A DNA stretch of 64,000 nucleotides from Ostrea edulis. Its lineage: Eukaryota. Shown piece by piece: positions 5,400 through 57,700 of the stretch. Below the pieces are notes generated by a model that did no database searches, was not told the origin of the DNA, and saw only the letters and a list, made by a program, of their open reading frames with translations. The DNA lies in contig NC_079171.1 in the NCBI RefSeq assembly GCF_947568905.1, positions 4,712,001 through 4,776,000 of the forward strand, given 5' to 3'. The translations under genes were made by a program, and so were the position numbers. The first letter of the stretch is position 1. Each line of letters starts with the position of its first letter.

Positions 5400-5457
5400 G
5401 CGTATGACTGACTAGCGGTTTTTTTTTTTTTTTTTTGGTTTTTTTTGTTTGGTAGAC

Positions 5458-6684
5458 TTAACTCTGTTTTTTGCCCTGCTTGTTTCTTGTTGATCTAGAG
5501 GAATTGTTGGTAGCTGAATTTTCGTCCGTACGCTGCAATTTGGCTGCCATGCCGTCGAGGATACGTCCAAGCTTATTTTCACCTGGCCAATGTTGCATTA
5601 GAGTATGAGATGTTCCGGTCACGTTCAGCCCGCTACCCCAATAAGTATCCCATGTCGATTCCACCAGAATATCGGATTTTCTGATTTTTTTTAAAGCACT
5701 TCTGAATTGTGAACAATGCTGTAGTTTAGATTCCAGTATTTCCCGCATAACGGAGTCTTTAGATGTAATCCAAGCATCAGATTCCAGGACCTGACCTCCT
5801 ACACGTTTGGCATCTAAGGCGGTTTCAGCTTTACTTACGGCTTCTGCACGGTTAAGATCACCAGAACGTAAGGATTTGATGTGTTGGAAAGCATGTTCGG
5901 CTGAAGGATATGTTTGCCCAAAAACCTTTAACTCAGTAGGGAAGAAATTTGAAAGAGGGTTATCTTTTCCAGAGAAGCATACTATGTCCTCCTGGTGAGT
6001 GACATATGATCTGCATTTATCCGATCCCGGAAAGTGACTTGGTAGCTTGCATATTCTACAACTCTGCTCGAATTCGCAAGCATTTTTGTAATGGTCATCT
6101 GCCCAGCAGTTTGTGCACTGCTTCTTTCGTTCCCGTAGGGGTTGGCCTTTGTGAGATATGGTACAGCGTAAACCTGCACATGACGCAGAGCGTGGAAGGA
6201 ATTTTCCATTCTCTAGAGGCGACATATACACAAAACGATTTCCATTTAATATTTCAGTCATTCTGTGGGTTTTAGGATGTCTGATTTTTTCATATTTGAT
6301 ATCACTTGTTAATTCTACTCCTAGACCTAAGCCTTTGAGCATCTTTTTAATACATGAATCTTCAACCGATAGAGGTATACCTTTAATTAGGACTCGAACA
6401 ACTTTCTCATCAGGAGAGTCTGTACCCGCAGAGAATGGGTTCGTGTCATAAACCTGGATTGATCTGCTTCCAAGTGAGAATCCTTCAGTAACTAATTTCG
6501 ATCTACTCTCCGCAGACTTTATGTAGATCCTCCACAGATCTCTATCTCTTTGTACACATATCACATCCGAGACTGTTGCGCTCGCGGCTTCTGCAATGTC
6601 AAAGTCGGTGAAATATTTACTTTTTGTTGTTTGAATGTCTCTGTTCCGCATATAAACTGGCTTAAGAGTTTGTGTCCACTCCAT
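5458..6684 (-). CDS. LINE ORF1p: RRM-like region, two CCHC zinc knuckles, C-terminal NADAR (YbiA-like) domain
   Basis: Knuckles CTNCWADDHYKNAC and CRICKLPSHFPGSDKC. NADAR motifs PLSNFF, YPSAEHAFQHIK, VMREILESK, LVESTWDTYWGSG and GENKLGRIL at aa 234-384 (about 5533-5985). Confidence 0.88.
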   Translation of the reverse strand: MEWTQTLKPVYMRNRDIQTTKSKYFTDFDIAEAASATVSDVICVQRDRDLWRIYIKSAESRSKLVTEGFSLGSRSIQVYDTNPFSAGTDSPDEKVVRVLIKGIPLSVEDSCIKKMLKGLGLGVELTSDIKYEKIRHPKTHRMTEILNGNRFVYMSPLENGKFLPRSASCAGLRCTISHKGQPLRERKKQCTNCWADDHYKNACEFEQSCRICKLPSHFPGSDKCRSYVTHQEDIVCFSGKDNPLSNFFPTELKVFGQTYPSAEHAFQHIKSLRSGDLNRAEAVSKAETALDAKRVGGQVLESDAWITSKDSVMREILESKLQHCSQFRSALKKIRKSDILVESTWDTYWGSGLNVTGTSHTLMQHWPGENKLGRILDGMAAKLQRTDENSATNNSSRSTRNKQGKKQS

Positions 6685-39064: not shown

Positions 39065-40570
39065 TACTCATGGACAAAAGAAACGTTACACATGAAAAAA
39101 TTATAGTAAAACAATATTTTTTCGTATAAATAAATAAAAACTTGTTTAACAACACTTCATGCTTTACTGATTACACTGGCAAACACAACAAATGTTAAAA
39201 CCTAGTCATGCGTGAATTTATCGTTGATACCCGTAAACATGGTTTCGTGGATATCGCATTGCACGTGCAAAGAAAATCATTTTCATTTTTATCAAATACT
39301 ACTCAAGGTGATTCAGGCAGTAAGAAAAACATCAAAATTTTCCAACATCTTCGCGTATTGCAATGCCCCGGCTCGACAGTTCCAGTCGCGAAAGAGCAAT
39401 TGGCATGTTGGAACTTGGAGCGTCGCAAGCCGACGTTGCACGGCGATTTGGGGTTGCAAGGATCACGATTTCTCGATTATTGCACCGTTTCAACACAACA
39501 AATTCAACAGCAGACCGCCCCCGATCTGGAAGACCTAGGGTAACAACGCCCAGGCAGGACCGCATGATACGATTACGTCATCTACGGAACAGAACGGAAA
39601 ATCCAGCAAACACTGCTGTTGGAATTCCTGGATTGCGGCGAATCAGTCGCCGAACAGTTCAACGACGTTTGTCGGCTGCAGGTCTACGTGCACGACGCCC
39701 ATACAAAGGACCTATGCTGACCCAAAGACACTGCCGAGAACGACTTCAATGGGCTCGACGTCACTTGAGATGGAGGCTTGCAGACTGGAATCACGTTCTG
39801 TTTAGTGATGAATCACGTTTCATGCTGCGCCGAGTGGATGGCAGAACACGCGTGTACCGTAGACGCGGTGAACGCTTCTCTGATGGATGTGTGCTACGCC
39901 ATGACCGCTTTGGAGGCGGAAGTGTAATGATGTGGGGCGGAATAAGTGGTAATCGACGAACAGATCTTGTACCGATCATTGGGACATTAAATGCACAACG
40001 ATACCGTAATGAAATCCTTGCACAACATGTCCGTCCCTTTATCGCTGCAAATGGCGGAATTTTCCAACAGGATAATGCGCGCCCCCACGTTGCAAGAGCC
40101 AACAGAGACTTTCTTGCCAACAATCACATCGACATCTTGCCATGGCCAGCACTTTCGCCCGATTTATCGCCAATCGAGCACCTCTGGGACCAATTAGACC
40201 GTCGAGTAAGACAACGCCGCAATCAACCGGAAACGCTTGAACAGCTTAGAACTGCTTTGCAGGAAGAATGGCAAAGAATCCCTCAGGTCTCCATCAATCG
40301 TCTCATTGCTTCTATGCGTCGTCGTTGTCAAGCTGTTATCGATAACATTGGTTCTTTCACTCGTTATTGACATTGTGAATTGAATATCCGAAGTTAACAC
40401 TTTCCGGCTTTGACTCCGTAATTTGTGTATGTTCAGATTCGGGAAACCTTAGATATTTGTTGTGTTTGAACATTCAAATTTTATTTTTTTATTCCCAAAT
40501 TATATTATATTTTCATGAAATAAAATTACAGTTATACATTTTGGTGTAACGTTTCTTTTGTCCATGAGTA
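39065..40570 (+). mobile_element. Full-length Tc1/mariner element (1506 bp) inserted in an intron
   Basis: Perfect 27-bp TIRs TACTCATGGACAAAAGAAACGTTACAC (39065-39091 and 40544-40570) with TA TSDs. Confidence 0.96.
39363..40370 (+). CDS. Tc1 DD34E transposase, intact (335 aa)
   Basis: Paired-like HTH; FSDESRF, QQDNARPH, and SPDLSPIE with 34 residues between the second D and the E. Confidence 0.97.
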   Translation: MPRLDSSSRERAIGMLELGASQADVARRFGVARITISRLLHRFNTTNSTADRPRSGRPRVTTPRQDRMIRLRHLRNRTENPANTAVGIPGLRRISRRTVQRRLSAAGLRARRPYKGPMLTQRHCRERLQWARRHLRWRLADWNHVLFSDESRFMLRRVDGRTRVYRRRGERFSDGCVLRHDRFGGGSVMMWGGISGNRRTDLVPIIGTLNAQRYRNEILAQHVRPFIAANGGIFQQDNARPHVARANRDFLANNHIDILPWPALSPDLSPIEHLWDQLDRRVRQRRNQPETLEQLRTALQEEWQRIPQVSINRLIASMRRRCQAVIDNIGSFTRY

Positions 40571-42063: not shown

Positions 42064-43154
42064 AAAAAAAAATTATCTGAATAATTGTGGGTGGGAATGG
42101 GGGTGAATTAACCATGTTAAAAAAATTTCATTTGTATTAAATTTTTCAGGCACAGACAAGAATGAATCATTTAGGCCTGGTTTTATCAACAGTTTGGAGA
42201 ATGCGGTTGCAGGATAGTGCACAAGAAAAAACCTTGAAGCTTCTAACTGAAAACCTTAAAACACAGCCTTTGGTCAAAATTACAGGTAGGAAGTAGTCCT
42301 GAGATAGAATGGTGCTATAAATTTAGCTTTATATGACCCTAATATTGAGTATACATGTATATATAATTACAGTTCTAACATTGTTGGGCTAATATTCAGA
42401 TGTATCTATTATATATATAGATGTACAATGTAGTTTCTTGTCCAAATTAAGCACGAAATATATGCGATATGTTAATGGAGTCGCATAAAGTTACATTTTG
42501 TTACTATGTTCAGATGCCCTCAAGTATTGAATTATCTGATCATTATCTACACACGGTATGTAGCCAATGCTAGTGTAGTGCCAATTAAGAATGGAATGGA
42601 AATGACAGGAAAGTTGAAGTCATCATGTTTGTCTTCAATTTTGTCCCATTTCTTATTTCAAGAAATAATCCAAGTATGAAAGGGATTTTGGCATATGTTT
42701 TGTTGATATTTTCTTTCAATGTCAATGATATGCCAGCACACTTCTTTTTAATTTTACAGGTGACAACCTTGACATTTATGTAAAAACATCGAACTTGGGT
42801 ATCGACAGAAGAAACAAAGATCTCCACCTTTTTACATCAAATGTTCTGTTCAGTAGAGTGGCAACCATTGATATGAACAATGACCCTCCAAAAACTGATC
42901 TATGCAAGGTATCAGCAGAAAACATGTTCTTGCACAACAATGATTTGCAAAGACAAAGACTTATATATGCCTATAGTGTACTGTTAGGAAGAATCTTGTG
43001 CACACTTCCTGTATTTCAAACATTCAAAAAGGCAATACCAGAGCATATTCCTCACGAGTTTATGACAAAAATGTCAGAAAGGTCCATAGTTTTACCATTG
43101 CCGATTCAGTTCAAGAATGAAGCCAAACATGAAAACTGTCTCTCTATTATGGAC

Positions 43155-43944
43155 AGTAAGGAGATCGTGTTGATGGATCGATTACATCTGGATTTGTTTG
43201 AGCAAGAGAAATGTCTCCCTAATGGCGTGGATGTCCGTCTCAGATTCAATCGCGCTCGACCCCAGTTCTACATGATGACCGCTGCCAGGAGTAGTGGGAA
43301 AGTGGTCATTCAAAGTATGATCTTGTGGGTGAGGAAAGTCAAACCTGTGCCGAGTATCATTAATCTCATCAATCAGCAACTGAGTACTCAAACGGCGAAA
43401 TATCCATTGAGACGAGTGGAAGTGAAAACCTTCACCATTCCTAGTGGCACCCAATCTAAAATCACCGATCATCTGTTTCAAGGACAGATGCCTAAACTGA
43501 TCGTGTTGGGCTTTGTGGACAATGCGGCTTTTAATGGGGATAATACCAGAAACCCCTTTCATTTCCAAAATGAGAAAGTCAAGAAATTAGAAATCAGTAT
43601 CAATGGAGAAATGATGGAAACCCGACCTTTGGAACCTAATTTCACCGACGATCAATACCTGAGATCGTATTTGAGTCTGTACAAAGGCTTGGGAAAATTA
43701 GGCCAGGACTGGGCTCCGGACATTACCCTGGAAGAGTATAAAAACGGTTACACCCTCTGGTGTGTGGATTTCACGAAAGATCAAGAAGCCCAGACGGATA
43801 AATTTCATCTCATACAGACTGGGAACTTGAGTGGAAGTGCAATTTGCCGCCAACGTGGCCAGGACCTTAAACTGTGTGGTGTATGCCGTGTTCGACAATC
43901 TGCTAGAAATCAACAAACAACGAGAAGTCAGTATCGATTACTAA
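43155..43944 (+). pseudogene. Maverick major capsid protein (double jelly-roll), N-terminally truncated and frameshifted near 43830
   Basis: [43 protein letters not shown]; the shifted frame ends [17 protein letters not shown]. Confidence 0.88.
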
Positions 43945-43953
43945 GAGAGAGAG

Positions 43954-44451
43954 ATGGATACTCAGCAATTGAGAGATGTTTTACAACGAGATTTAGGACC
44001 GGCGTTTGCAGGTGTGTATCCTCGAGATGTCATACCTGAGCTGTTACCTCATCACAAAGCCATCGTGGTGAATACAGACCCTCACGATCGCCCTGGAGCG
44101 CATTGGGTCTGTTTGTATTTGAGTAGCCCTACCGTCGAATATTTTGATTCTTACGGATTACCTCCCAGCCATAAAGACATCCAACACTTTATTCAACGCC
44201 ACGGAGAGACTTGGATTCATAACACCCATTGTTATCAAGATTTGAATACGGATGTCTGTGGACAATACTGTGTGTATTTTTTACATCAACGCCATCGACA
44301 TAGAAGCACCGTACAAGAATGGTTACTTCCCTGGAAAGGCACGGCCTTACAACGCGATCGTTTTGTGGCTGATTGGTTTAAAGAGACCTTCCGAAAACCG
44401 AGAACCCATCAAGGACAAACTTGTCAATGTCAAAGACTGAATGTATTGTAA
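43954..44451 (+). CDS. Adenain-like (C5) cysteine maturation protease
   Basis: IVVNTD....[12 protein letters not shown] and YQ....VCGQYC (His/Asp/Gln/Cys catalytic set). Confidence 0.92.
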
Positions 44452-44554
44452 ACTATGTTATTGTATTGTTATTGTTCACAGTTGGAGTTTAATAAAACGT
44501 TGGAAAAAATCTTGTGGTTTTTTTTTTTTTTTCTTGTCATTGTAATCAACCATG

Positions 44555-44596
44555 TCTTTTCAAAAAGAATGGGTAGCCCTGAAAAGGGCTGTTTTT
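44555..44596 (-). terminator. Histone-type 3' stem-loop (44575-44590) plus downstream purine-rich element
   Basis: Minus strand AAAAAC-AGCCCT-TTTC-AGGGCT-ACCCA then TTTGAAAAGA. Confidence 0.8.
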
Positions 44597-44660
44597 TCTC
44601 TCTCTCTCTCTCTGTTCTTGGTCTTTTCTCTTCTTCTTCTTCTCTCTTCTCCGTCCCCCC

Positions 44661-44957
44661 TCACTGTGTGTTCTTCTTCCTCTTTCTTCTCTTCTTTTTC
44701 TGCTCCTCCGGGGGTTGCTGGTGATCAAACACAAAAACAGGCAACCACCCGTGTTTAAAAAACACTCTCCCCGGAGGCCGCTGCACCACTTCCAACTCTG
44801 CGTCCCAGTTTTCCTCTGGCGGGGGCAGATCCTGGCTCATGGGCGGTGGGGGAAGAGCCTCCCGTGAGGCCGGCGGGGCAATCTCTCGCTCCCAATCCTC
44901 CTCCCATTTGAAACAATAATCATTCACTGTAGGGTCTGGTCCTACTCTGCGGCTCAT
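44661..44957 (-). CDS. Small acidic/Pro-rich protein with a basic C-terminal NLS-like tail
   Basis: ATG start, conserved promoter block upstream (45030-45054) and histone-type stem-loop downstream; function unknown. Confidence 0.55.
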   Translation of the reverse strand: MSRRVGPDPTVNDYCFKWEEDWEREIAPPASREALPPPPMSQDLPPPEENWDAELEVVQRPPGRVFFKHGWLPVFVFDHQQPPEEQKKKRRKRKKNTQ

Positions 44958-45144
44958 ATCTACTTCTCTGGTTCCTTAAAAAATCGGAATGCCAGATTTT
45001 TGACGTTGCGCTCGTTTAAAAAGGTGAGAGCGCGGACGTCCTTGAAAACATCCCCTACCTCAGTCAAAGATGGCGGACGTCATGTTGATGACTCATCAAA
45101 AAAACACTATATAAATAGGTCACTTGTTACCATTTTTCTCAATC

Positions 45145-45546
45145 ATGTCGTTTGAACGGTACGCGAATGATGAGAAAGATGTACTAGTGTGTGGGTATTG
45201 CCGAGGACATTGGAGAACTTGTGGCTGTTTTCATTATAAAAAAGAAAACATCCTGGCCAAACACAAGTGGATAGAGAGTTTGGCAGAGCTGAATTATTAT
45301 CCCTTTGTCTATAAATGTTGTAGTCACACTAGAGAACCCTGGCTAAAGTGTAAGTGTCCGCAGCATTGTACCATCACCCCTGAAGAAGAAATAGCGCATA
45401 AGGACTGTACCTGTGAGATCTGTCAGGAGTTTAGAGAGCGCTGGACTCGGAGAAAGTTTTATCCCCACCTGTTTCAACATTGTCCTTACAGTCAAGAACC
45501 CTGGTCAACGTGTACCTGTGAGACCTGTCAACCAGCATGTCGGTGA
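45145..45546 (+). CDS. Cys/His-rich small protein (putative zinc-binding)
   Basis: ATG at 45145 below the TATA box (about 45109); repeated CxC/CxxC clusters; stop overlaps the macrodomain start. Confidence 0.55.
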   Translation: MSFERYANDEKDVLVCGYCRGHWRTCGCFHYKKENILAKHKWIESLAELNYYPFVYKCCSHTREPWLKCKCPQHCTITPEEEIAHKDCTCEICQEFRERWTRRKFYPHLFQHCPYSQEPWSTCTCETCQPACR

Positions 45547-46034
45547 CGGATCTACGAGGAGATGTATTATCTCTACCTTGGGTGGATGCTATTGTACAAC
45601 AATGTAACTGTTTAACAGTGAAACCTCATGGATTAAGTCAACGTATTGCCGACCGATTTCCTTGGGCTAATCTGTATGCGACCCGACAACCTTTAGGACG
45701 GAGAAATTTAGCTATAGAAGCGGATCGAGGAATACCGGGTACTGTGTGTATTATGCCTCATTCTACTCATCCTGATGTGATCTGTTTGTTAGCGCAATGG
45801 GATTACGGGAGAGGCACTCAACGGTTACCCCTGTATGCCGATACCCCCGAACAACGTGAACTTTGGTTTCAACAATGTTTACAGAAATTAGACACTTTGT
45901 CTTACCAGACTTTAGCGTTTCCTTATCGTATTGGATGTGGATTAGCCGGAGGCAATTGGACTCATTATAGACAATGGATTTGTGACTTTGCTTATCAGTA
46001 TCATAAACATGTTTACATTGTCAAGAAAATGTAA
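45537..46034 (+). CDS. Macrodomain protein (TARG1/DarG/phage-like branch)
   Basis: GDVL, AIVQQCNC, GLSQRIADRFP and LAFPYRIGCGLAGGNW. Confidence 0.85.
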   Translation: MSVTDLRGDVLSLPWVDAIVQQCNCLTVKPHGLSQRIADRFPWANLYATRQPLGRRNLAIEADRGIPGTVCIMPHSTHPDVICLLAQWDYGRGTQRLPLYADTPEQRELWFQQCLQKLDTLSYQTLAFPYRIGCGLAGGNWTHYRQWICDFAYQYHKHVYIVKKM

Positions 46035-46063
46035 CTTTATTATAGCTTTATTCTAGCTATTAC

Positions 46064-46103
<40 letters not shown>

Positions 46104-46199
46104 TTATTCTGCCTACTATGTGACTTGTGTTAATAAAACTTTTAAAAAAAAAACAAAAAAAAAAACTTGTGTGTTTCTTGATTTTTGCAATAAAAAGTG

Positions 46200-46240
46200 T
46201 CTTTTCAAAAAAGTTGGTGGCCCTGAAAAGGGCCGTTTGG
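46200..46240 (-). terminator. Histone-type 3' stem-loop (46219-46234) plus downstream purine-rich element
   Basis: Minus strand CCAAAC-GGCCCT-TTTC-AGGGCC-ACCAA then TTTGAAAAGA, about 21 nt after the RING ORF stop. Confidence 0.9.
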
Positions 46241-46255
46241 TCCTAAGACCGACTT

Positions 46256-47050
46256 TCAATGCCTGGTTCCGGTAAACCGGCATAACGGGCACCGTCCCCG
46301 GGTGTGTCGCCGCTCCTCTAACTGTTCCACGCACGAGCAGCAAGCTGGGCGCTGCCCACATCCCCTACACGTGATACCGGAGTGTACCCTGTCTTGCCAG
46401 CAGACAGGGCACTTAAACCAGATAGGAACCGCCCTATCTGCCCAGCCAGGGACAGTCATAGGGTGGTTCCTCGGGGGATGACTTGCCACCGGTGCGTGGG
46501 TTGGTCTCGGTGGCGGAGTCCTCCCTGCAAACCGGATGGTAGGTGGTGGGGGTCTTGCAGGGGCTGCTGGTCTCGGTGGTGATGGTGATGACGTGTCTGA
46601 CACCAACAGCGACGGACTCTGGGCTGGGCTGGGAGGTGGTGCGGGGGACGGTGACCTCGGTGAGTACTCCACCGGTGACGCTGGTGAGTCGCTCATCGGC
46701 ACCGGGCTGTATTCCACTGGTGCCGATGGGATCGCTGGTGGTGGTGTTGTAGGCGTCGCCGGGGAGTAAGGTGGTGGTGGTGAGGGTGGCTGTGGGGCCC
46801 GTCGGCGCGGTCTCGTAGCCGTGGACATCCGAGCGGTGCGGCGGCGTCCCCTCCCTTCATACTCTGCCCGCACCCGGCAGATGATCTCACGGGCCCCACT
46901 CTGGTCGAAAGGGGAGAAGGTGCTCAGGTCGTTCTCAGAACGCACGACCCAATTCTCCCCTACCCGTTCCTCAGCCACCACTAAGAGCCGGTACCGAAAG
47001 CCAGGCAGGGTCTGAAAGTTGTAAATAGGCTCTCTTCTTCCTTCAGCCAT
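46256..47050 (-). CDS. Pro/Ser-rich protein with a C-terminal C4C4 RING-like finger (putative E3 ligase)
   Basis: CPVC-x10-CRGC-x5-CCSC-x13-CPLC; homolog at 55115-55786. Confidence 0.75.
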   Translation of the reverse strand: MAEGRREPIYNFQTLPGFRYRLLVVAEERVGENWVVRSENDLSTFSPFDQSGAREIICRVRAEYEGRGRRRTARMSTATRPRRRAPQPPSPPPPYSPATPTTPPPAIPSAPVEYSPVPMSDSPASPVEYSPRSPSPAPPPSPAQSPSLLVSDTSSPSPPRPAAPARPPPPTIRFAGRTPPPRPTHAPVASHPPRNHPMTVPGWADRAVPIWFKCPVCWQDRVHSGITCRGCGQRPACCSCVEQLEERRHTRGRCPLCRFTGTRH

Positions 47051-47602
47051 TCTTCTTTCTTCTATCTTCTTTAAAATAATGAAAAGCTGTGCTGGATCAC
47101 CAGTGAAGCGAACTGGCGAGCGCGCCGGTATATATCAGGAAAGCGCGGACCTCCTCGAAAACATCCCTCGCTTCGGAGACGAAGCCAAGATGGTGGCCGT
47201 CAAAATGGCGGATTTGTGCTTTCGAGTAGAGAGTTTTTTCTCATTGTCTTTTTCTAGACATTCGATATCTGTGCATGGTAGATTTAATCTGATAGATTCT
47301 GGGGCGCGGAATTCGTTAAACTTATTTTTATTTTGCTACGTCGCATAGTTTTCAAAGAAACAGAGGTTAAAGAGGTCGAGTCGAGGTTCAATGTTTCTTC
47401 ACCACCTCTTTAAAAATTTATTTCTCGACCATGTACATCCCTAAAAACATCTCATAAGGTCTATTCGATAGAAAACACCTTATTTGATTCGATTTTCACT
47501 CTACCTTTAGGATTTTCTGGATTCCTCAACAAATAAACCCTTCTCTGAGAGAGTCAACCAAACACAGCTTTCGTGTAAACAATTTTATTCATGTCACATA
47601 TT

Positions 47603-47959
47603 TCAAATACATAACTCCCACACACAACACCAATTCACATGTATTTTTAAAATAGGGTCCAACATTTTTTCCATTTCTCGAATCCTGCGTTGAAATCGAT
47701 ATCGATCAGCGGCTACAGTCATCCAGATACTTGTCCGGTCTTCTTCGGGTAACAGATACACTTCATTATGATCCAGATTAAAAGTTACACATTTTCTTGT
47801 ATTTTGTTGTACATGTGATGAAGATACCGCCCTCGAAGGGTGTCGATCACGCCACTGATGTGCGGCTTTGTTCTCTTTAATTCCTCGGCTACTAAATGAA
47901 TCAACACTAATGCCTCGGTGTTGATACGGTTCTCGATCAAATGTCTGCATATCCACCAA
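47603..47959 (-). CDS. PPP1R15/GADD34/ICP34.5-like PP1-eIF2alpha adaptor
   Basis: RVxF-type KCVTF followed by RTSIWMTVAADRYRFQRRI...LDPIL. Confidence 0.85.
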   Translation of the reverse strand: MVDMQTFDREPYQHRGISVDSFSSRGIKENKAAHQWRDRHPSRAVSSSHVQQNTRKCVTFNLDHNEVYLLPEEDRTSIWMTVAADRYRFQRRIREMEKMLDPILKIHVNWCCVWELCI

Positions 47960-48123
47960 TATTCGTCTAAAGTTATTGGAAATAATACCGCACGAAGATA
48001 GGATTTCAATTTTTGAAAATCTGGCAAGTTTTCTATTTCCTCAATACACTGTAGGACAAATGTTTTTTCGATGTTATCCCTAGCAGTCATGATTTCATAA
48101 ATGAAATGAATTAAGTTCTTCAC
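47785..48123 (-). CDS. Bcl-2-like helical paralog 4
   Basis: Shares the FP.TLDEY..I...L.EN....LVLI....EELKR..P pattern with its neighbours. Confidence 0.55.
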   Translation of the reverse strand: MKNLIHFIYEIMTARDNIEKTFVLQCIEEIENLPDFQKLKSYLRAVLFPITLDEYWWICRHLIENRINTEALVLIHLVAEELKRTKPHISGVIDTLRGRYLHHMYNKIQENV

Positions 48124-48487
48124 ACTTTATGTATACTTCTCGAAGCCAGTCCTTGGTGATACTTTCAATCTCGGCGGTTTTTTCAGGCATGCGTTTCTTG
48201 AATTCCTCCCCCACAACATAAATTAACATCAATCCCGCATCGTTATAGAGATTGATGTACACCCGGTTCCGTAGATCTGTATATTGGTCCAGAGTCAATG
48301 GAAACACTCCCCCTATCAGAAAATTTTTAGCGAATTGAAACACCGTATCGTCTTGCATTTTCTCGACCCATTCTAATGCATGGTTATGCGCTTTTTCTGC
48401 GATGTTGTCACTTTCAGCCATGGTTTGTAAATGACTAAAATGAATACAAGTATCCGCTTTTTCTACGATGTGGTCACTGCTGGCCAT
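48095..48487 (-). CDS. Bcl-2-like helical paralog 3 (likely ATG about 48421)
   Basis: FPLTLDQY...GLMLIYVVGEEFKKRMPEKTAEIESITKDWL. Confidence 0.55.
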   Translation of the reverse strand: MASSDHIVEKADTCIHFSHLQTMAESDNIAEKAHNHALEWVEKMQDDTVFQFAKNFLIGGVFPLTLDQYTDLRNRVYINLYNDAGLMLIYVVGEEFKKRMPEKTAEIESITKDWLREVYIKCEELNSFHL

Positions 48488-48969
48488 CCTCCAGGAATAA
48501 AGGAAAAGAAAAACGGTGAGGTTTTTTTATACACCTTTTCCAGCCAGTGATCGGTAATCGCTACAATCGCCCCAGTCTTCTCAGGTTCCCTTCGTCTAAA
48601 TTCTTGCTCCATGGTATAAATCATGATCAATCCAGACTCTCTGTTCAGGTTGTCGGCTATATGCTTGCAAACGCCGGAATATTCATATAAGGTCATAGGA
48701 AATTCCCAAAAGATCAACAACTTCATGGCGAATTTATATCTCAACGGCTGTTTTTCTTTCCAGTCCTTGATACACTGTAATGCAGCGCTACGAGCGTTGT
48801 TCACCGATTCTTTGTAGTCCTTGAAATACTGTAATACAGCGGTAAGAACATTGTTGTCCCATTCAGCCATGATGATCAAATGAAAAAAAATTCCAAAACG
48901 TTCTTGTTTTATAACAGGGCAGCCATTCCTTTCATACGAATCAGTTCCACGAATCCTTTTTGTAAACAA
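48463..48969 (-). CDS. Bcl-2-like helical paralog 2 (likely ATG about 48870)
   Basis: FPMTLYEY...GLIMIYTMEQEFRRREPEKTGAIVAITDHWL. Confidence 0.55.
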   Translation of the reverse strand: MFTKRIRGTDSYERNGCPVIKQERFGIFFHLIIMAEWDNNVLTAVLQYFKDYKESVNNARSAALQCIKDWKEKQPLRYKFAMKLLIFWEFPMTLYEYSGVCKHIADNLNRESGLIMIYTMEQEFRRREPEKTGAIVAITDHWLEKVYKKTSPFFFSFIPGGWPAVTTS

Positions 48970-49268
48970 TCGCGTAAGATCCGATCAATGTCACTCATCT
49001 GGTCTGGAAGGTTCTGTTTCAATTCCTCAGCATACAAATAAATCATGAGTAAACGTCCCGTATTGGTATTCTCCGCTAATGAATCAGCAATCCGTTGAAA
49101 ACTATGTACATTTCTGACCTCCGGTGACATCTGTTGTACAAATTGACGAGCATTTTGAATGAGAGGGTCATGTAAGGCCACGTTCATACATTGTAGTACA
49201 TAGCTATATCCATTCATTCTCGTAGTAGCACTGCCGCCCATAGTGAATAACGAACGTTCAGAAAACAC
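48909..49268 (-). CDS. Bcl-2-like helical paralog 1 with the clearest BH1-like motif
   Basis: FQRIADSLAENTNTGRLLMIYLY resembles BH1 (F..V..ELF.DG.NWGRIV.FF). Confidence 0.6.
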   Translation of the reverse strand: MFSERSLFTMGGSATTRMNGYSYVLQCMNVALHDPLIQNARQFVQQMSPEVRNVHSFQRIADSLAENTNTGRLLMIYLYAEELKQNLPDQMSDIDRILRDCLQKGFVELIRMKGMAALL

Positions 49269-49378
49269 CTGTATTTATAGGTAAAGGTTATGCATCACGT
49301 GATCAAGCACCTGCACCGCGTGATCAAGCACCTGTACGTCAGCTGGTTTCTACAGTCATTCTTGTCTGACCTTCAGTC

Positions 49379-49639
49379 ATGGATACACGGAGAGTTTTAA
49401 GAGCGAGACGCCGCCGCCAGGGAATACAACAAGTGGAGAATTTAACCATAGTAGAAGATTATGTAGACGAGATGGAGATCTGGGACAATTTAGTACAGAG
49501 ATGTCGCCATCGATTACGCTGGGGCCGATCTAAAAATTGGTGTTTTGACTATGTATTGCGGTCACATGAAACAGTGGAGGATATTTGGCTGCGTTTAAGT
49601 GACATGTACCTGAAAAATTCCCCCTCATACAGTACATGA
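49379..49639 (+). CDS. Hypothetical small protein
   Basis: ATG start; coupled to the next ORF by an ATGA overlap. Confidence 0.5.
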   Translation: MDTRRVLRARRRRQGIQQVENLTIVEDYVDEMEIWDNLVQRCRHRLRWGRSKNWCFDYVLRSHETVEDIWLRLSDMYLKNSPSYST

Positions 49640-49884
49640 TTTACCAGTTTTACACGTTATTGAACGGCACTCAAAAAGTATCGGGATTTATTCGACTGGA
49701 GAAACCACGTCACCGGAGAAGTGTATGGGTATTGTTTTGGGATGCAGACTGGATGTGGGAAACCGTCGAAGAGATACGTTTCCCCGGGAGAAGAGCTCGA
49801 CAATTAGTACAGCACATTATATCCGAAGATCATGACTTACACGTGTATATAGAAGAACCTGCGTATGAAGCCGGCCATTTTTAA
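49636..49884 (+). CDS. Hypothetical small protein
   Basis: ATGA overlap; followed by AATAAA and a degenerate histone-like stem-loop (49904-49919). Confidence 0.5.
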   Translation: MIYQFYTLLNGTQKVSGFIRLEKPRHRRSVWVLFWDADWMWETVEEIRFPGRRARQLVQHIISEDHDLHVYIEEPAYEAGHF

Positions 49885-50193
49885 AAATAAAAACTTCATG
49901 CACAGCCCTTTTTAGGCCTACTTTAAACACCAATATAAGTTCCATTCCACTAAAGTCAATGTGTACCAATGTGCACTAGCACGCGCTGGTCGCGAGAAAC
50001 CGGCTTTTCAAGTTCAATTAGTGCACTAGCACGCGCTGGTCGCGCGATGTTCTAAATGAAACCGGTTTTTCCAGAAAAAGATGGTGCAACCACGTGCTCC
50101 CCACGAGACAGAATAGTCTAGACATTTTGCTGGCTATAAAAGCGGAGCCCCAGTGTCAGTCCTCATTCGATCTTCAATCACCTTCCAGAAGAC

Positions 50194-51093
50194 ATGGCTC
50201 AGAAACAAGTAGAATTTGTGGACAAAGCTCAGAAGAAAATAGATCAGCTGGTACAGAAGCAGATGGGACCACAGAAAGACTACATTGAACTGAAGAAAGC
50301 TAAGAGTGACGATCAGAAGACTGAACTGGGGAAGACCTCGAACTTCTTGCTCAAGTCTCCAGACTACATTGCTCGACAAGAGAAGATGCCCCAGACCTCG
50401 AACCAGACCACGAGCTTCAATCTCACGCCTTCAGACTACATTGCTCGACAAGAGAAGATGGCCCAGACCTCGGATTACCTCCCTAGCCAGAATCCGACAG
50501 ACCCGGGATTAGGCTTCTATTTTCCCGATTCACAGGACGCTACGGGACTGGAACTGGGCCTCTACAACGCTCAGAATGACCCTCCGACCATGAACAAAGA
50601 AGACTTTGCGATCATTACCACGACACTAGACGGGATCGTTAACCGCATTAATGTGCTGAGTAATGAGATTGGAAATCATACCACAGTCCTACTGAAGAAG
50701 CTGGAAGAGCTGACTTCTAAAAAACCTAGGAAGGAATACACTCCAGATTACGCTGCTAACCCGTGCTACACGTGTGGAGAAACAGGACATTGGTCGCCGG
50801 ATTGCCCACAGAAAACAGATTATCCGCAGACCAGTAAGAAATCGAGGTCAGCAGATTCTCAACAGACCAGCAAGAAAACCAAACAAAAGGATCCTTGCTA
50901 CAAATGCGGAAAAATAGGACACTGGATTAGTGAGTGTCCAGAAGAACAACTGGAGATAGATGCGATGATTGGGCCCGTACCTGGCTCAAAACCCCCTGTG
51001 AAGAGAGAATACAAACCGTTAGAGATGTGGAATCCGCCCGCACCTACTGAAGAACCGCCAAAAAAGAAGAAGAAGAAACTCAGCAGAAAGTAA
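50194..51093 (+). CDS. Coiled-coil protein with two CCHC zinc knuckles and a C-terminal poly-Lys NLS
   Basis: CYTCGETGHWSPDC and CYKCGKIGHWISEC; duplicated DYIARQEKM; TATAAAA at about 50135 and AATAAA at about 51184. Confidence 0.75.
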   Translation: MAQKQVEFVDKAQKKIDQLVQKQMGPQKDYIELKKAKSDDQKTELGKTSNFLLKSPDYIARQEKMPQTSNQTTSFNLTPSDYIARQEKMAQTSDYLPSQNPTDPGLGFYFPDSQDATGLELGLYNAQNDPPTMNKEDFAIITTTLDGIVNRINVLSNEIGNHTTVLLKKLEELTSKKPRKEYTPDYAANPCYTCGETGHWSPDCPQKTDYPQTSKKSRSADSQQTSKKTKQKDPCYKCGKIGHWISECPEEQLEIDAMIGPVPGSKPPVKREYKPLEMWNPPAPTEEPPKKKKKKLSRK

Positions 51094-51419
51094 TGGACTG
51101 TGCTTGAACTGTTATGCTTATTGAACTGTTTTTATGCTTATTGAACTGTTTTGCATTGTTCTATGCTTGTACCATTGTTCTTTAATAAACATGTCAACTT
51201 AAAACCTTGTGTTATTCTTTAGATTTAATACACAGGAATACATAGAAATACACAGGATTTCATACCGATTTTCAGAAAATAGCTCCAGGAACTCACCCTT
51301 TTCCAGGAACTCAAAGCGAAAGTAGCGCATAATAGAGCTAAAATTACACCAGCGGCAATAGCCCAGCCTATTAACCCGACCTACAACCCCTGCTGGGGTC
51401 CGCAAGTTGACCCCGTCCT

Positions 51420-51541
51420 AGATATTGAACCACTCATCGACCCCCGACACCGCTTGACCAATCAAAAGCCGCCCTTGCTTGACCTCATTTGCATAAAAAG
51501 TGCACTCAGTTGAACTCCCTATCGGGAGGGCTTATACTACT
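51420..51541 (-). promoter_or_regulatory. Maverick terminal repeat / putative replication origin
   Basis: AGTAGT terminus; hairpin ctccc-tatc-gggag; octamer ATTTGCAT at 51487-51494; CCAAT at about 51459. Confidence 0.65.
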
Positions 51542-52271
51542 CCCGTTTCTTTTTATCTTACAATTTACATGACTAAAGCGTTAAACTTATTGTATGTGCT
51601 TCTGAAACAAAAGTATTAAAGTTCAGTGTGTTCATGCTCCCTGGTCCCTCTACATACAATGCACATGCAAGATGTACACTAAATGTAGTATTATCTGCCT
51701 AAAGCAGGGGTGTCATTGGATGCCATCCAACTCTTTGTTGCCAGGATTAGAACATTTTCTTTATCTAAGGTACAGATGTACATGATACTGAATAATGAAG
51801 TGTACATGTCAATACCATTGTACCTATATATAACAATTGCCAAGAAGAAAATAAAATTATTGATTTATATTTTATAACGACAATGAGGATACATGAGCAG
51901 ATCCAGCACAATAGCTTTATTAAGAATTATTTAGGGAGAGGGCTAAAATAGACTGTTTGCTGCCTGATCCCATTCACTGATTTCTGAATAAAATATTGTT
52001 TAAATAAAAATAATAAGCTACATAACCAAATAAAGAGATTATGCTGGACCTGATAAGGGAATAATTATAGTACACACAATGATACAGAATGTGTTGTGAA
52101 AGTCATCACAGGGTGTGATGTCATTTTAGTGCATACAATCAGATGAAAAACCGCACACCGTCACTTTGAACAAAGGCAAGCTTCTGAATTAATGATAAAG
52201 GATGTGTTTGAGAAATGAACTAGTTGGTTGGGTGGTTTTATTCTAATTTGGTCCAAACATCTTCTACTTAC

Positions 52272-52765
52272 CATTTCTCTATAATATGGCATTCATCAAC
52301 AACAACGGCTACCACTCTTGAGGAAAATTGCTCATCCGACAGTAGTTCGTGTCCCGTTTTTGTATTAAAGAGGGCCTCTGGATGACACATAACAATTGAA
52401 AAGTCCCCTTTCTTCACTCTTTCCACATCGACGTCACACTCTGCTACTAAATCTTCATCTGTAGTGTCTTCCACCTTGGACGCAATATCAAGTCTACAGG
52501 CACTGATTCCATGAATTTTCAATATATGAATTTGATCCTTTTGAATAATATTCAATGGTGAAATTGTCAAACAAACGGGAGTCTCCTTGCCTTCACCAAG
52601 AACTTGTGGAAGTAGGTGATATATTAGGCTTTTGCCGTAACCGACAGGCAAACTTACCAACAGATCGCCTTTCTTGTCGCGTAAATACTCGAAAGCTTGT
52701 CTCTGACAGTCTCTCAACACGATGTTCTTGTCGTAATCTTTCACGATTGAATCTAATGTTGACAT
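52272..52765 (-). pseudogene. RecQ-type SF2 helicase first exon (AcademH-like); downstream exons missing
   Basis: LRDCQ, LPVGYGKSL (motif I), ISPL, HPEAL and VVVDECH (DExH); GT donor at 52271. Confidence 0.85.
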
Positions 52766-53215
52766 TTTGTCGGATGAATAAATAAACCAAATAACACAGA
52801 CTAGGAAAATGTTTCGCAAACATATAGTTCCTATAAATATAGCGTTTTAAAAATGTTTGTCGCCTAAAATAAAACCATATTTATGTCAGAAATAAAAATA
52901 TATTACAAAAGTATTAATATAAAATCTTCGATGCAAAATCTAGGCTATATTGACATATTACAGAAATCTTGTAAAACCTGAGACGTTTACAGAGATTGTG
53001 AGCACTGTAAGGATCGACAACTCTGTATGAGAGATTGAGATCGTTAGCCAAAGACACAAATCCAGGGCGACTAATCATGATTTATCTGTATGCCGAGGAG
53101 CTCAAGAAAATCATCCCCAATCAAACCCGCGACATTGCGATCATTCTACAAGAAAGTTTACAAGAGGGGTTCATGGAGATGATGCGTTTTAACTAGTTTT
53201 CTTCATTAACAAATC

Positions 53216-53542
53216 ATGGGTGAAAGTGAAAACATCTCAGAAAAAGCGCATAAGCATGCATTAAAATGCATCGAGAAAATGCAAGACGATGGGGTGTTTC
53301 AAGCTGTTAAAAATTATCTGATATCGGGAGTGTTTCCAATTACCCTAGACGAATATATAGATCTACGGAACCATGGGTACAAGGACCTCTATAACGATGC
53401 AGGATTGATGTTAATTCAAATCGTGGGGGAGGAATTCAAGAAACGCATTCCAGAAAAAACCACCGAGATTGAAAGTATCACAAGCGACTGGCTTCGAGAA
53501 GTGTACATAAAGTGTAAAGAACTTAAATCATTTCATTTATGA
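53216..53542 (+). CDS. Bcl-2-like paralog 3, copy 2
   Basis: Strong similarity to 48095..48487. Confidence 0.6.
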   Translation: MGESENISEKAHKHALKCIEKMQDDGVFQAVKNYLISGVFPITLDEYIDLRNHGYKDLYNDAGLMLIQIVGEEFKKRIPEKTTEIESITSDWLREVYIKCKELKSFHL

Positions 53543-53853
53543 AATCATGGCTGAGAGGGACAACACAGAAAAAAATATTCGTCGGCAAGTGTATTGAGGA
53601 GGTTGAAAACTTACCAGGATTTCAATTTGTGAAATCCTATCTTCGTTCGGAAATATTTCCAATCACTTTAGACGAATATTCATGGATATGCAACCATCTA
53701 ATCGAGAACCCTATCGGCACCTCGGCCTTGGTTTTGATTCATTTAATAGCCGAGGAATTAAAGAGAACGATGCCAGACCAAACACCCCAGATCGAGACCC
53801 TCCGAGCGCAGTATCTTCACGACATGTACATCAAAATACGAGAAAATGCGTAA
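53539..53853 (+). CDS. Bcl-2-like paralog 4, copy 2
   Basis: Strong similarity to 47785..48123; ATGA overlap with the previous ORF. Confidence 0.6.
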   Translation: MKSWLRGTTQKKIFVGKCIEEVENLPGFQFVKSYLRSEIFPITLDEYSWICNHLIENPIGTSALVLIHLIAEELKRTMPDQTPQIETLRAQYLHDMYIKIRENA

Positions 53854-54014
53854 CCTTTAATCTGGACAACAATGAAGTGTATCTGTTACCCGAAGAAGAT
53901 CGAAAAAGTATCTGGATGACTGTAGCCGCCGATCAATATCGATTCCAAAGAAGAATTCAGAGTGTGGAGAACATTTTAAAACCTATCTTAGAAAAACTTT
54001 TTATTTCTTTATAA
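53682..54014 (+). CDS. PPP1R15/ICP34.5-like adaptor, copy 2
   Basis: RKCVTF and RKSIWMTVAADQYRFQRRI. Confidence 0.82.
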   Translation: MDMQPSNREPYRHLGLGFDSFNSRGIKENDARPNTPDRDPPSAVSSRHVHQNTRKCVTFNLDNNEVYLLPEEDRKSIWMTVAADQYRFQRRIQSVENILKPILEKLFISL

Positions 54015-55114
54015 GTGACATGAATAAAACATTGTTGTATGTGGCGTGAATAAAAATGTTTAAAATACATGGATTGTGTTTGTCGACTCTCTCAGAGGAA
54101 GGGTTTATTTTATTACTCAGGAGAAAAATCCTAAAAGTGGATTGACAATCAGTTAGAATAAGACGTTTTCTACTGTATTACAGGTTATTTTACTGTATTA
54201 CAGGTTATTGGACATTTTTATAGTTGTGCATGTCCGAGAAATAAATACTTTAAAGGGACTGGTTCACGAAAGAAATGTTTTTCGATTTTGATGTTAAAAA
54301 TTAAAAATATACTTCATTTAATATTGACAACCAAAATTTGGACCGTCTGAATGCAAGGATAAGAGCAATATTTTAGCTTTGATTCTCTGTTAGGTAAACA
54401 AAGACTCGAGTCTTTTTATGTAAACAAACAGATCAGTGAAACGTTAATTTTGTAATTCAAAGTATGTTCATTTTGTACAATCACAAATTTTAACTTTTAA
54501 ATGACACATTTTACCTTAAGTATACTTGAGATGTGGTATATTCAATATCCATTTATTTTGAAAACCCCGTAAACAATAACACACCCCAATCTTTGTTTTC
54601 AAAACAAATAATAAACTCTCTATAATGAGCTTATGTCATGAGGAATAACCTTAATTTTTTTGTGAATCCTTCTAAACATATTAGACTGTAGATTTTGATC
54701 ATTTAAAGTGAAAAAGAAAATTTGAAGAAAAATCGTGAATCAGTCCCTTTAAGTGTCTGTGTTAGTGGATTTCACCTCGACTCGTGCTCTTTGATCTCTC
54801 TTTCATTGAAGACTATGCCCCGTAGCAAAATAAAACTAAGCTTAACGAATTCAGCGTCTCAGAATCTATCAAATAAAACCCTCAATTCAGAGAAATCGAA
54901 TGTGTAGAAAAAGAAAATGCGAAAAAACTCTCTTCACGAAAGCACAAATTAGCCATATTGACGGCAGCCATCTTGGCTTCGTCTCCGAAGCGAGGGATGT
55001 TTTCGAGGTCTGCGCTCTCTCGTTATATACCGACGCTCTCGCCAGTTCGCTTCACTGGTGATCCAGGAACTACAAGATTTATTTTGAGAAGATTCGAAGA
55101 ATTGAAGAACAACA

Positions 55115-55786
55115 ATGTCGACAACCAGTATGGTCTTTGCCACCTTACCGGGGATCAGATACCGGTTGCAGCTCGTTACCGAGCGGAACAATTGGTGGGG
55201 ACTGGGTAATCATGAGCACCCGGGAATTGGGGCAGTTTAGTCCTCTTGATAGGGCGGGGGCTATGGAGCTCGTCAATCAAGTGCGGCGCCGTTACGAGCG
55301 CCCTGGACGGGGTGCATCCGCTGTAGGACAGCGCGCATGTCCACCACCCCCAGTCAACAGACAGTCCATCGCAGCCCGGACCCTCGGAACAGCCCTCGCC
55401 ATCGATACTAGAGGGGTACTCGCCCTCACCGATGTCCCCGCAGCCGCCCACTAGCCCGAGAGCGAGTCTGGAAGAAGTGGTACCCCAAACACCCACACCC
55501 CCGTCAACCCCTGTGAGACCCCGGGCACAACGTCGCGGTGCCGTTCGTATCCTTCCACTACACCGGCATCAGCAGGACCACCGACAGAACACGAGACCGT
55601 CGTCCCGGGGTGGGCAGATCGATTACCATCGATCTGGTTCACCTGCCCCATCTGTCTGCAAGACTCCAAACACTCGCAGTTAAGAGTGCAGCCACTGTAA
55701 ACAACGGGCAGTGTTCTGCGAGTGTGGTCCAGCTGGAGGGAGGAAGATACAGCCGGTGCCCCCTCTGCAGATTCATCGGCGTGTAG
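55115..55786 (+). pseudogene. Pro-rich RING protein, copy 2, frameshifted
   Basis: TLPGIRYRL, FSPLDRAGA, WFTCPIC and RCPLCRF fall in different frames. Confidence 0.78.
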
Positions 55787-55809
55787 AAAGGCACAGCTAC
55801 AGAGCAAAA

Positions 55810-56184: not shown

Positions 56185-57700
56185 AGGAAGAGGTGTTTGC
56201 TGTAAGGGAATTCAGAAAAGGGGACTTTCTCCTTGAGTACAAGGGAAAGCTGTGCCGTAGTGACCCTGGCTACGGCACATACATGTTCCGAGTTCCAACT
56301 GAATGGGAAAGATTATTGGTATGTTTTGATTGTTACATTATGCTCAAGAGCCATAAAGACCGTCATGAGGAACAAAGACCAACTGGTATGCATATTTTTG
56401 TTTGGTATTTGCATAAACCGTAGCGAGGATTTTCTTTCATATGATTAATATCATATTGTTTTTGGCATTAGATGATAGAAGACAACCCAGCAGAAGAACG
56501 GGGTCCCCTTATCGAGGAGATAGATGAGGAGATAGATGAGGAGATAGACGAGGAGGAAGAGAATGTAATATGCATTTATTGATAGTTTCCCCCCAGTTCT
56601 GTGCATGTTACATTTCATCAGGGATGATTTTATACACAGTTCTGTGCATGTTACATTTCATCAGGGATGATTTTATACACAGTTCTGTGCATGTTACATT
56701 TCATCAGGGATGATTTTATACACAGTTCTGTGCATGTTACATTTCATCAGGGATGATTTTATACACAGTTCTGTGCATGTTACATTTCATCAGGGATGAT
56801 TTTATACACAGTTATGTGCATGTTACATTTCATCAGGGATGATTTTATACACAGTTATGTGCATGTTACATTTCATCAGGGATGATTTTATACACAGTTA
56901 TGTGCATGTTACATTTCATCAGGGATGATTTTATACACAGTTATGTGCATGTTACATTTCATCAGGGATGATTTTATACACAGTTATGTGTATGTTACAT
57001 TTCATCAGGGATGATTTTATACACAGTTATGTGCATGTTACATTTCATCAGGGATGATTTTATACACAGTTATGTGCATGTTACATTTCATCAGGGATGA
57101 TTTTATACACAGTTATGTGCATGTTACATTTCATCAGGGATGATTTTATACACAGTTATGTGCATGTTACATTTCATCAGGGATGATTTTATACACAGTT
57201 ATGTGCATGTTACATTTCATCAGGGATGATTTTATACACAGTTTTATTACATTTTCCAGCCGTCAATTTCAACATGCCAAACACCAAGCCATGGAAGACG
57301 GACGTTTACCGAGGGAGAGGGTGGCGTCATCGAAGCATTCTGCCAGTAAGGAATTTAGCATACATGTTGAAATAAAACTTGTCTTCAATGAATATGTCTA
57401 GTGTGCTGAGATTAACGCAACATCAATTTTTGTAGACGACTGCAGTCATAACACATCACAAGGTGGTGGACCGACTGTCCAGGACGGAGGAGGGGAGGGC
57501 CATAATCCACCGTTTGGAAGTGGCAGATCCAAGCGATTGGAGGAAGAGGCTAGCAGATCGGGTGAGGACTGCAAGGAGAAGGAGAAAGTAAGTGATAATG
57601 AAAATATTTGAAAATAATTGATTGATTTATTGCATTTAAAACAAATTTGTTATTTACTTTTCAGGTGAAGACCCGACTGCTAGTGGCTCTGTGGAGTGTT
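56185..57700 (+). pseudogene. Spliced gene remnant beginning with a SET-domain-like fragment
   Basis: VFAVREFRKGDFLLEYKG resembles the SET N-terminus; short acidic exons follow; no NHS motif found. Confidence 0.35.
56594..57243 (+). repeat. 43-bp minisatellite, about 15 copies
   Basis: cagtt(c/a)tgtgcatgttacatttcatcagggatgattttataca; early copies have c and later copies have a. Confidence 0.98.

Follow-up and report, generated by a model that had tools for sequence, protein, structure and literature searches.

A candidate host-manipulation gene cluster in a Maverick/Polinton element of the bivalve Ostrea edulis

Results

Gene content of the cluster

We examined a window of 64,000 nucleotides of the Ostrea edulis genome (contig NC_079171.1, positions 4,712,001 to 4,776,000 of the forward strand; coordinates below are those of the window), in which a fragment of a Maverick/Polinton element carries a compact cluster of candidate host-manipulation genes. 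The genes that the original prediction had named there, a macrodomain, a RING protein, an adaptor for the phosphatase PP1 and four helical open reading frames (ORFs; here b1 to b4), are all present where it had placed them, and the same span holds two further ORFs without a domain call (Table 1). Most of the domain calls hold up in profile and structure searches, with the RING and Bcl-2 matches weak by sequence, and comparison between subfamilies of the element reveals purifying selection on b4, the macrodomain, the adaptor and the RING gene; the intervals for b1 and b2 include 1. Because most calls survive and four genes are under purifying selection, we consider 'host-manipulation cluster' a fair label.

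Table 1. Features of the element fragment and of a second fragment in the window (aa, amino acids; dN/dS, ratio of nonsynonymous to synonymous substitution rates)
Feature	Position	Strand	Basis
Fragment of Maverick/Polinton copy, subfamily A	43152..51541	+	loose left end, right terminus, matches to other copies
Presumed major capsid gene, 3' part, 5'-truncated and frameshifted	43152..43950	+	82% to 467-aa ORF of another copy
Adenain-type maturation protease, 165 aa	43954..44451	+	PF00770 E 2.4e-4, at cut-off
98-aa acidic Pro-rich ORF, basic tail, no domain call	44661..44957	-	ORF list, domain scan
133-aa Cys-rich ORF, no domain call	45145..45546	+	subfamily A only
Gln-type ALC1-class macrodomain, 165 aa	45537..46034	+	profile, conserved Asn24 and Gln87
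264-aa protein with a RING-like finger (C4C4) at its C terminus, behind a small N-terminal domain and a Pro/Ser linker	46256..47050	-	alignment, Pfam
Single transcription unit b4-b3-b2-b1-adaptor (inferred)	47584..49279	-	TATA-like box, poly(A) signal
Putative PP1-recruiting eIF2alpha phosphatase adaptor (GADD34/CReP/DP71L/ICP34.5 type), 115 aa	47603..47950	-	Pfam, PDB profile matches, motifs
b1: five-helix Bcl-2-core-like protein, 101 aa, without BH1 Gly-Arg	47785..48090	-	paralogy, fold model
b2: paralogue of b1, 130 aa in window (108 aa in other copies)	48095..48487	-	paralogy only
b3: paralogue, subfamily A in part; 117 aa in most other copies	48463..48870	-	paralogy only
b4: five-helix Bcl-2-core-like protein, 110 aa, BH1-like Asn-x-Gly-Arg	48909..49241	-	paralogy, fold and complex model
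168-codon gene of other copies, split near 49620 in window copy	49379..49884	+	no domain
299-aa double zinc-knuckle protein	50194..51093	+	PF00098 E 2e-15; dN/dS 0.1-0.2
Right terminal inverted repeat, AGTAGT read from outer end	51110..51541	+	comparison of copies
Second, decayed, inverted fragment, subfamily C: b4 remnant, b2, b1, PP1 adaptor, broken RING gene	52975..55790	+	

The PP1 adaptor

Pfam family PP1c_bdg (PF10488) matches the adaptor at E 2e-7 (31.4 bits against a cut-off of 26.1), and over its last 65 residues it aligns in the PDB with CReP (E 3e-5) and DP71L (E 2e-4), in both cases with no gap. The PP1 adaptor of the original prediction stands on these matches, and judged from its sequence we regard its identity as firm. 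The protein carries an RVxF motif (K53-V55-F57), keeps both leucines of the DP71L LSAVL motif and agrees everywhere except at Gly with the eIF2alpha-binding motif as quoted in PMC5346070 (this and the other papers cited are drawn on from the parts of their text available to us). A host-like PF10488 exon is 43% identical to it over 30 aa, and the large protein search gave no candidate for the adaptor.

The first ~55 codons of the adaptor are overprinted on b1. All 17 of 17 copies carry its frame across b1 without a stop, while the corresponding frames over b2 and b4 are interrupted by 1-5 stops, which argues that the overprint is kept open. Net dN/dS (calculated throughout from 3-10 copies per subfamily of many more, with broken or partial ORFs mostly excluded) is 0.19 over the motif region (confidence interval 0.06-0.52) and 1.03 over the first 51 codons, those that overlap b1. 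The overprint is probably open just to reach the adaptor start codon.

The macrodomain

The macrodomain drew no match from the Pfam scan. It has 125 homologues, several named O-acetyl-ADP-ribose deacetylase and one with PF01661, and a 58-sequence profile matched Bt_1257 (E 8e-9) and TARG1 (E 2e-4) as well as SCO6735 and Poa1. All 58 sequences have Gln87, and Asn24 is conserved in at least 90% of them. These residues align with Gln85 and Asn27 of SCO6735, both of which are required for hydrolysis (PMC9411070), and the Gln takes the position of TARG1 Lys84. Net dN/dS is 0.18, and 54 of 56 near-identical full-length matches are stop-free. The best relatives in IMG/VR lie mostly on giant-virus contigs, at 40-48% identity. 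A macrodomain of the same type (48%) also occurs in another Maverick lineage (presumed capsid 27%), beside a PC4-like gene (L182:4885-9688). We take the window macrodomain to differ from the MacroD type of coronaviruses.

The RING protein

The finger of the RING protein is a C4C4 variant with eight spaced zinc ligands and a terminal Cys-Pro-x-Cys-Arg; all seven aligned sequences share nine Cys and, directly behind the last of these, an Arg, and dN/dS for the gene is 0.12-0.5. The protein's own Atlas cluster is mostly Mollusca. Its Atlas neighbours at 0.87-0.90 are viral clusters, and those with a Pfam family are RING types, which we treat as a lead only. It is plausible that the protein is an E3 ligase. 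Of its proposed role against ubiquitin-mediated restriction, the RING-like finger with its invariant Cys was borne out; the role itself was a guess, and the Pfam match falls below cut-off.

The helical ORFs b1 to b4

Genes b1 to b3 are paralogues of b4 at 17-25% identity, and the b frames stay open over ~30% divergence. b3 was found in five of the ten closest copies examined and is absent from subfamilies B and C, and in the window copy the end of its frame is disturbed near 48510; four b paralogues are not the rule for the family. In b4, net dN/dS of 0.12-0.16 indicates clear purifying selection and Gly62-Arg63 is invariant among 13 sequences. Divergence of b3 is too low for dN/dS.

By sequence comparison, the link to Bcl-2 is weak. 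The Pfam Bcl-2 family matched one of 24 aligned b members (E 0.016), and in profile-profile comparison the b profile matched host Bcl-2 exons at E 8e-4 (probability 24%) in a BH3-BH1-helix-6 register that aligns the Asn-x-Gly-Arg of b4 with the host BH1 motif. A protein search with b4 returned one near-identical protein among five candidates. The 24-sequence profile, run against 1.84 billion representatives, returned 29 short proteins that by eye belong to the same family, and the ten looked up carry no Bcl-2 name. No relative of b4 was found among 63 viral and 130 metagenome candidate stretches, in a search that reaches close relatives only and may omit Ostrea edulis' own records. An LxCxE in b1 was considered as an Rb motif and rejected, as it sits within a helix and subfamily C does not share it.

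Predicted models of b4 and b1 (pLDDT, the predicted local distance difference test, 86.6 and 87.1) each have five helices. When the b1 model was compared with 48,161 chains, the top 11 were all of the Bcl-2 family, as were 21 of the 50 shown; the best match, Bcl-xL 81-186 (97 aligned residues, root-mean-square deviation 3.2 A), has a Z of 7.9, and a Z below 8 for an all-helical model may reflect a common arrangement. Foldseek ranks 1-5 for b1 are BAX and Bcl-xL (E 0.8-1.2), ranks 1-9 for b4 are ORFV125 or BAK (E 0.35-1.1), and in a BFVD search with b4 the Bcl2 of a lancelet adintovirus ranks second (E 1.4). We relate b1 and b4 to Bcl-2 because these results agree; no score is significant alone.

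A complete Bcl-2 fold has seven to eight helices. In the usual helix numbering, the modelled b proteins match Bcl-xL 81-186 and lack BH4 (helix 1) as well as the end of BH2 and the membrane anchor. No membrane anchor was found in b1-b4 (highest 19-residue hydropathy 0.7-1.2), and no in-frame upstream extension carrying helix 1 was found for b4, b3 or b1, a search that a spliced upstream exon would escape. The models give modest grounds for regarding the b genes as Bcl-2-derived cores, not full family members.

Modelled with the BH3 of host Bak (32 residues of the host Bak exon), b4 scored 0.87 against 0.61 for the best control, with at least 97% contact agreement between runs, a partner pLDDT of at least 88, and Arg63 placed beside the BH3 Gly-Asp. 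Among microbial pairs, 51 of 78 solved and 2 of 108 mismatched ones reach this score mark, and among eukaryotic pairs 39 of 65 solved and 2 of 126 mismatched ones do, a calibration that does not cover peptides or host-pathogen pairs; the model may have passed because it resembles Bcl-2:BH3 complexes of known structure. On this model b4 is the best candidate BH3 trap, predicted to bind host Bak BH3. The four apoptosis inhibitors originally proposed are not established, since b4 alone joins Gly-Arg to clear purifying selection and all four lack helix 1 and the anchor, although b1 and b4 do model as Bcl-2 cores.

In eight of ten host Bcl-2-family frames (L071-L080) the match ends at Gly-Gly-Trp followed by a codon starting with GT, likely the BH2 intron. 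The b proteins stop just before this point, which would fit capture of a genomic exon, though such capture does not account for the absence of helix 1.

Expression layout and recurrence of the modules

A TATA-like box lies 38 nt before b4, and the first AATAAA on the minus strand comes only at 47589. Because b4 to the adaptor share this one TATA-like box and one poly(A) signal, the layout suggests a single unit with several products. The full layout recurs in one B copy, and one C copy shares its poly(A) part. The window also holds a pair of divergent promoter-like regions that resemble each other (45030-45115 and 47125-47210), each with TATA-like boxes and a YY1-type word; both occur in B and C copies too. 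Contigs from four sequencing runs match the region with joints that lack GT-AG ends, one of which matches the b3-less form of genomic copies; none of seven runs considered is RNA, and the contigs give no strand, level or splicing.

Sequence matches place the adaptor, b gene and macrodomain modules in distant loci of the genome as well. At the Maverick-like locus L178:4562-7635, whose integrase is only 38-43% identical, a b-family gene is directly followed by an adaptor match and a gene that fuses CARD (E 1e-14) to PC4 (E 6e-10); the fusion gene is a further candidate death-pathway decoy. A stand-alone, DP71L-sized adaptor of 61 aa (PF10488 E 2e-8) lies upstream of a b-family gene at L180:4394-5126 and L181. 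A relative, P0129, has a b gene and the adaptor in one 148-aa frame, either a natural fusion or a frameshifted copy.

The element and its family

The fragment is the right-hand ~8.4 kb of a subfamily A copy and runs from inside the presumed capsid gene to the right terminus at 51541. Its left ~12 kb are gone, leaving loose ends at 43146-43152; no left inverted repeat was found within the window, and the ORF listed from 42873 begins in host DNA, not in the element. The Maverick identity given by the original prediction holds, for a copy that is a 5'-truncated fragment. Full-length members, whose recovery it had proposed as a check, were characterised in 14 longer copies. These measure 19.9-21.1 kb and have inverted repeats of 251-436 bp; in 13 of the 14 the 6-bp target duplication is exact.

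The longer copies carry an rve integrase with chromodomain, an A32-type packaging ATPase (Pox_A32, E 4e-7) and a protein-primed PolB (PF03175, E 1e-42 in one longer copy), which the truncated window copy lacks. Between polymerase and ATPase stands a BIR-RING inhibitor of apoptosis protein (IAP; L033:7284-7811 and others), of which two allelic types are distributed across subfamilies A and B. The capsid and penton labels were given by position and size to ORFs of 467 and 332 aa in the expected places, which have no Pfam or PDB sequence match, and viral contigs gave no match to the element's capsid patterns in a search that reaches close relatives only. By gene content the element is a Maverick of adintovirus type.

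Other loci match the fragment at 92-98% over most of its length, and b4 has at least 84 full-length genomic matches at 95-100% identity, 83 of them stop-free (best 150 of 355 candidates). The family is young and very abundant in the genome. It comprises at least three subfamilies (A, B and C), of which A and B form mosaics: over 46172-48507 they are 93-96% identical, on both flanks 68-84%. Between subfamilies, dN/dS is 0.07 for the ATPase, 0.11 for the presumed capsid and 0.22 for both the presumed penton and the protease, indicating strong purifying selection; net dN/dS for the adenain protease is 0.21. The 133-aa Cys-rich ORF (45145-45546) gave no selection signal in dN/dS.

Other features of the window

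A young Tx1/L1-type long interspersed nuclear element occupies 1652-6684 on the minus strand; of 29 candidates scored for it, 16 match over the full length at 99-100%. Its ORF1 ends in a NADAR domain (E 3.5e-20), a feature already noted in oyster Tx1 ORF1 (PMC12477816). The window also holds CACTA-type transposase ORFs (9690-11968), an intact-looking Tc1/mariner transposase (39363-40370), a RecQ-like helicase fragment (52268-52765) and a 43-bp tandem array (56465-57366).

Discussion

We propose, with a probability of about 70%, that the cluster is the accessory region of a bivalve adintovirus-type Maverick that blunts the host cell response. The anatomy of the element, the domain identities, the selection on four genes, the multi-copy spread and the exchange of modules between subfamilies are observed; from these we infer every activity, the expression and any particle phase in the scheme that follows. 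The element would replicate as linear DNA and make capsid-module proteins while its accessory genes keep the cell alive and translating. The adaptor would bring PP1 to eIF2alpha, leading to dephosphorylation and continued translation. As a shortened, soluble Bcl-2 core, b4 would trap the BH3 helix of Bak-type killers, with the BIR-RING IAP elsewhere in the element backing it against apoptosis. The macrodomain would bind, and probably remove, ADP-ribose from proteins or DNA, and the RING protein would probably act as a ubiquitin ligase. Genes b1-b3 would be diverged duplicates of the same core, maybe with other partners.

Several results weigh against this proposal. The window copy itself is defective, its presumed capsid gene lacking about the first 200 codons and carrying a frameshift near 43830. 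For the b genes, no Foldseek E-value comes down to 0.001; 18 of 50 rows in the VIA fold search with b4 are Bcl-2, and the best two are not. The b profiles found no Bcl-2 among PDB sequences (matches at E 0.14 or worse, judged chance), and a b4-only profile reached host exons at E 0.06. b1-b3 lack the BH1 Gly-Arg, and net dN/dS for b1 (0.65, 0.33-1.24) and b2 (0.74, 0.42-1.83) does not depart significantly from neutrality. In the RING protein, zf-RING_2 matches six of the seven aligned members under cut-off (best E 1e-3), and the best hit of a PDB sequence search is TRIM32, at E 0.8 only. Of the predicted counter to ADP-ribosylation, the ALC1-class fold stands by the 58-sequence profile, but two residues before the Asn the macrodomain has Gln22 where the SCO6735 subclass has Val25 or Ile; these residues place it near, not in, that subclass, and because of the replacement it may be a binding-only reader.

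How widely the b genes act on apoptosis is an evenly balanced matter. It is an even chance that b4 alone is a BH3 trap, and that b1-b3 are Bcl-2-fold scaffolds moved to non-apoptotic targets, as in poxvirus A52, B14 and K7, or decaying duplicates. The missing Gly-Arg, the ratios of 0.65 and 0.74 with dS low relative to neighbouring genes, and the coming and going of b3 among copies would all fit such a split, for which Bcl-2-fold poxvirus proteins that inhibit NF-kB without binding pro-apoptotic proteins are a precedent (PMC5691641). However, several viral BH3 binders such as F1L show no recognisable Bcl-2 sequence similarity (PMC5691641), b1 is the better fold match to Bcl-xL, and the frames have stayed open over the divergence noted above.

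Whether the element has an infectious phase bears on what the cluster is for. That the locus is the integrated form of an infectious adintovirus, with the cluster as its early region, is in our judgement close to an even proposition, if slightly short of one. The conserved packaging and capsid module agrees with it, as do gene types shared with asfar-, herpes- and poxviruses, the mostly giant-virus macrodomain relatives and the viral RING look-alikes nearest beyond the mollusc cluster. Selection on capsid genes, however, is general to Mavericks and older than the cluster, and the cluster does not discriminate between virus and transposon: as all four functions are cell-autonomous, it fits both alike. 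The originally drawn resemblance to viral early regions is compatible with the data, but the same genes would be equally useful to a non-infectious self-synthesizing transposon, so that support for an infectious phase does not follow.

A purely intracellular germline transposon, whose genes shield the cell from the DNA-damage, stress and death signals of linear DNA and integrase and which forms no infectious particle today, is a reading to which we give some, though lesser, credence. Besides the cell-autonomous functions, it draws on spread by integration, with at least 84 near-identical b4 matches and target duplications, and on the statement that an extracellular form of Polintons has not been detected (PMC7805220). 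Against it, the packaging and capsid-module genes are under strong purifying selection between subfamilies, at the ratios given above, and A/B mosaics are what one would expect of co-replicating genomes, though gene conversion could also produce them. Selection on packaging genes (0.07-0.22) and mosaicism lean mildly toward a virus phase; a virus-like replication phase is suggested, not proved.

A bolder version strikes us as doubtful: that the Mavericks of bivalves live as active viruses whose early region is modular and on a par with that of large DNA viruses. In this version a minimal Bcl-2 of five helices, lacking helix 1 and the membrane anchor and possibly cut at the conserved BH2 intron of an exon taken from the host, would still trap Bak BH3; its tandem duplicates would act on other innate-immune targets, and one of them would host the overprinted adaptor. 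Quite improbable is that the helical ORFs are no Bcl-2 relatives and match as a generic five-helix bundle, since, for all that Z stays at or below 7.9, Foldseek and PDB sequence searches give nothing significant, profile-profile probability is 24% and the Atlas gave no usable match for b4, two paralogues at 25% identity, folded from alignments that overlap, each have Bcl-2 proteins at the top of their Foldseek ranking, the register sets Asn-x-Gly-Arg on the host BH1 motif and the complex model has canonical BH3-in-groove geometry.

Seen as an accessory region, the cluster extends eIF2alpha-phosphatase mimicry and Gln-type macrodomains to Polintons. It also implies eIF2alpha kinases, ADP-ribosylation and Bak as means by which the cells of bivalves work against such elements. 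The viral status of animal Mavericks is a standing question, and infectivity is not settled by the cluster. Being young and abundant, and with candidate antagonists of four host pathways that can be tested, the family lends itself to assays of expression and function for each gene, and the ~100-residue Bcl-2 core offers a test of which helices BH3 binding needs.

Comparison with known systems

Bcl2 and IAP cargo has been published for adintoviruses (Starrett et al., 2021; PMC8502044), in a paper whose supplement sets IAP labels next to maps from bivalves; the adaptor, the macrodomain and the shortened cores are apparently unreported in these elements. The available text of PMC8502044, with figures covered as text only and an incomplete supplement, makes no mention of macro, GADD34, PP1 or RING. 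No PP1 adaptor or macrodomain in Polintons was found in the available literature including PMC11071296, PMC11131425, PMC10294476 and bioRxiv 2025.04.19.649669, and supplements, Repbase or subscription papers may hold them; likewise no report of shortened Bcl-2 cores in Polintons was found, and supplements and repeat databases may hold one.

The window family shares pPolB, the chromo-integrase, ATPase, adenain, inverted repeats and 6-bp duplications with adintoviruses and animal Mavericks (PMC8502044). Unlike the 197-aa Bcl2 of the lancelet adintovirus, its b proteins are 101-117 aa long and stand in a tandem array of three to four.

SCO6735 of Streptomyces and Bt_1257 of Bacteroides are the best PDB profile matches of the macrodomain; in them, as here, Gln replaces the lysine of TARG1 and DarG, and the Asn is conserved. 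The window macrodomain nonetheless belongs to a group of its own, in which oyster proteins and giant-virus contigs stand closest to it.

With ORFV125, A179L, F1L, GIV66 and N1 the b proteins have in common a helical core and a BH3 groove, the latter predicted, and like them N1, a viral Bcl-2 protein, has no membrane anchor (PMC5691641). They differ from viral Bcl-2 proteins in having five helices only.

The adaptor shares the RVxF motif, the eIF2alpha-binding motif and the LSAVL leucines with DP71L of African swine fever virus, ICP34.5 of herpes simplex virus 1 and GADD34/CReP (PPP1R15). It differs from them in having Ser for the motif Gly, its function being predicted from sequence, and in its N-terminal half, which overprints a Bcl-2-like gene and evolves neutrally.

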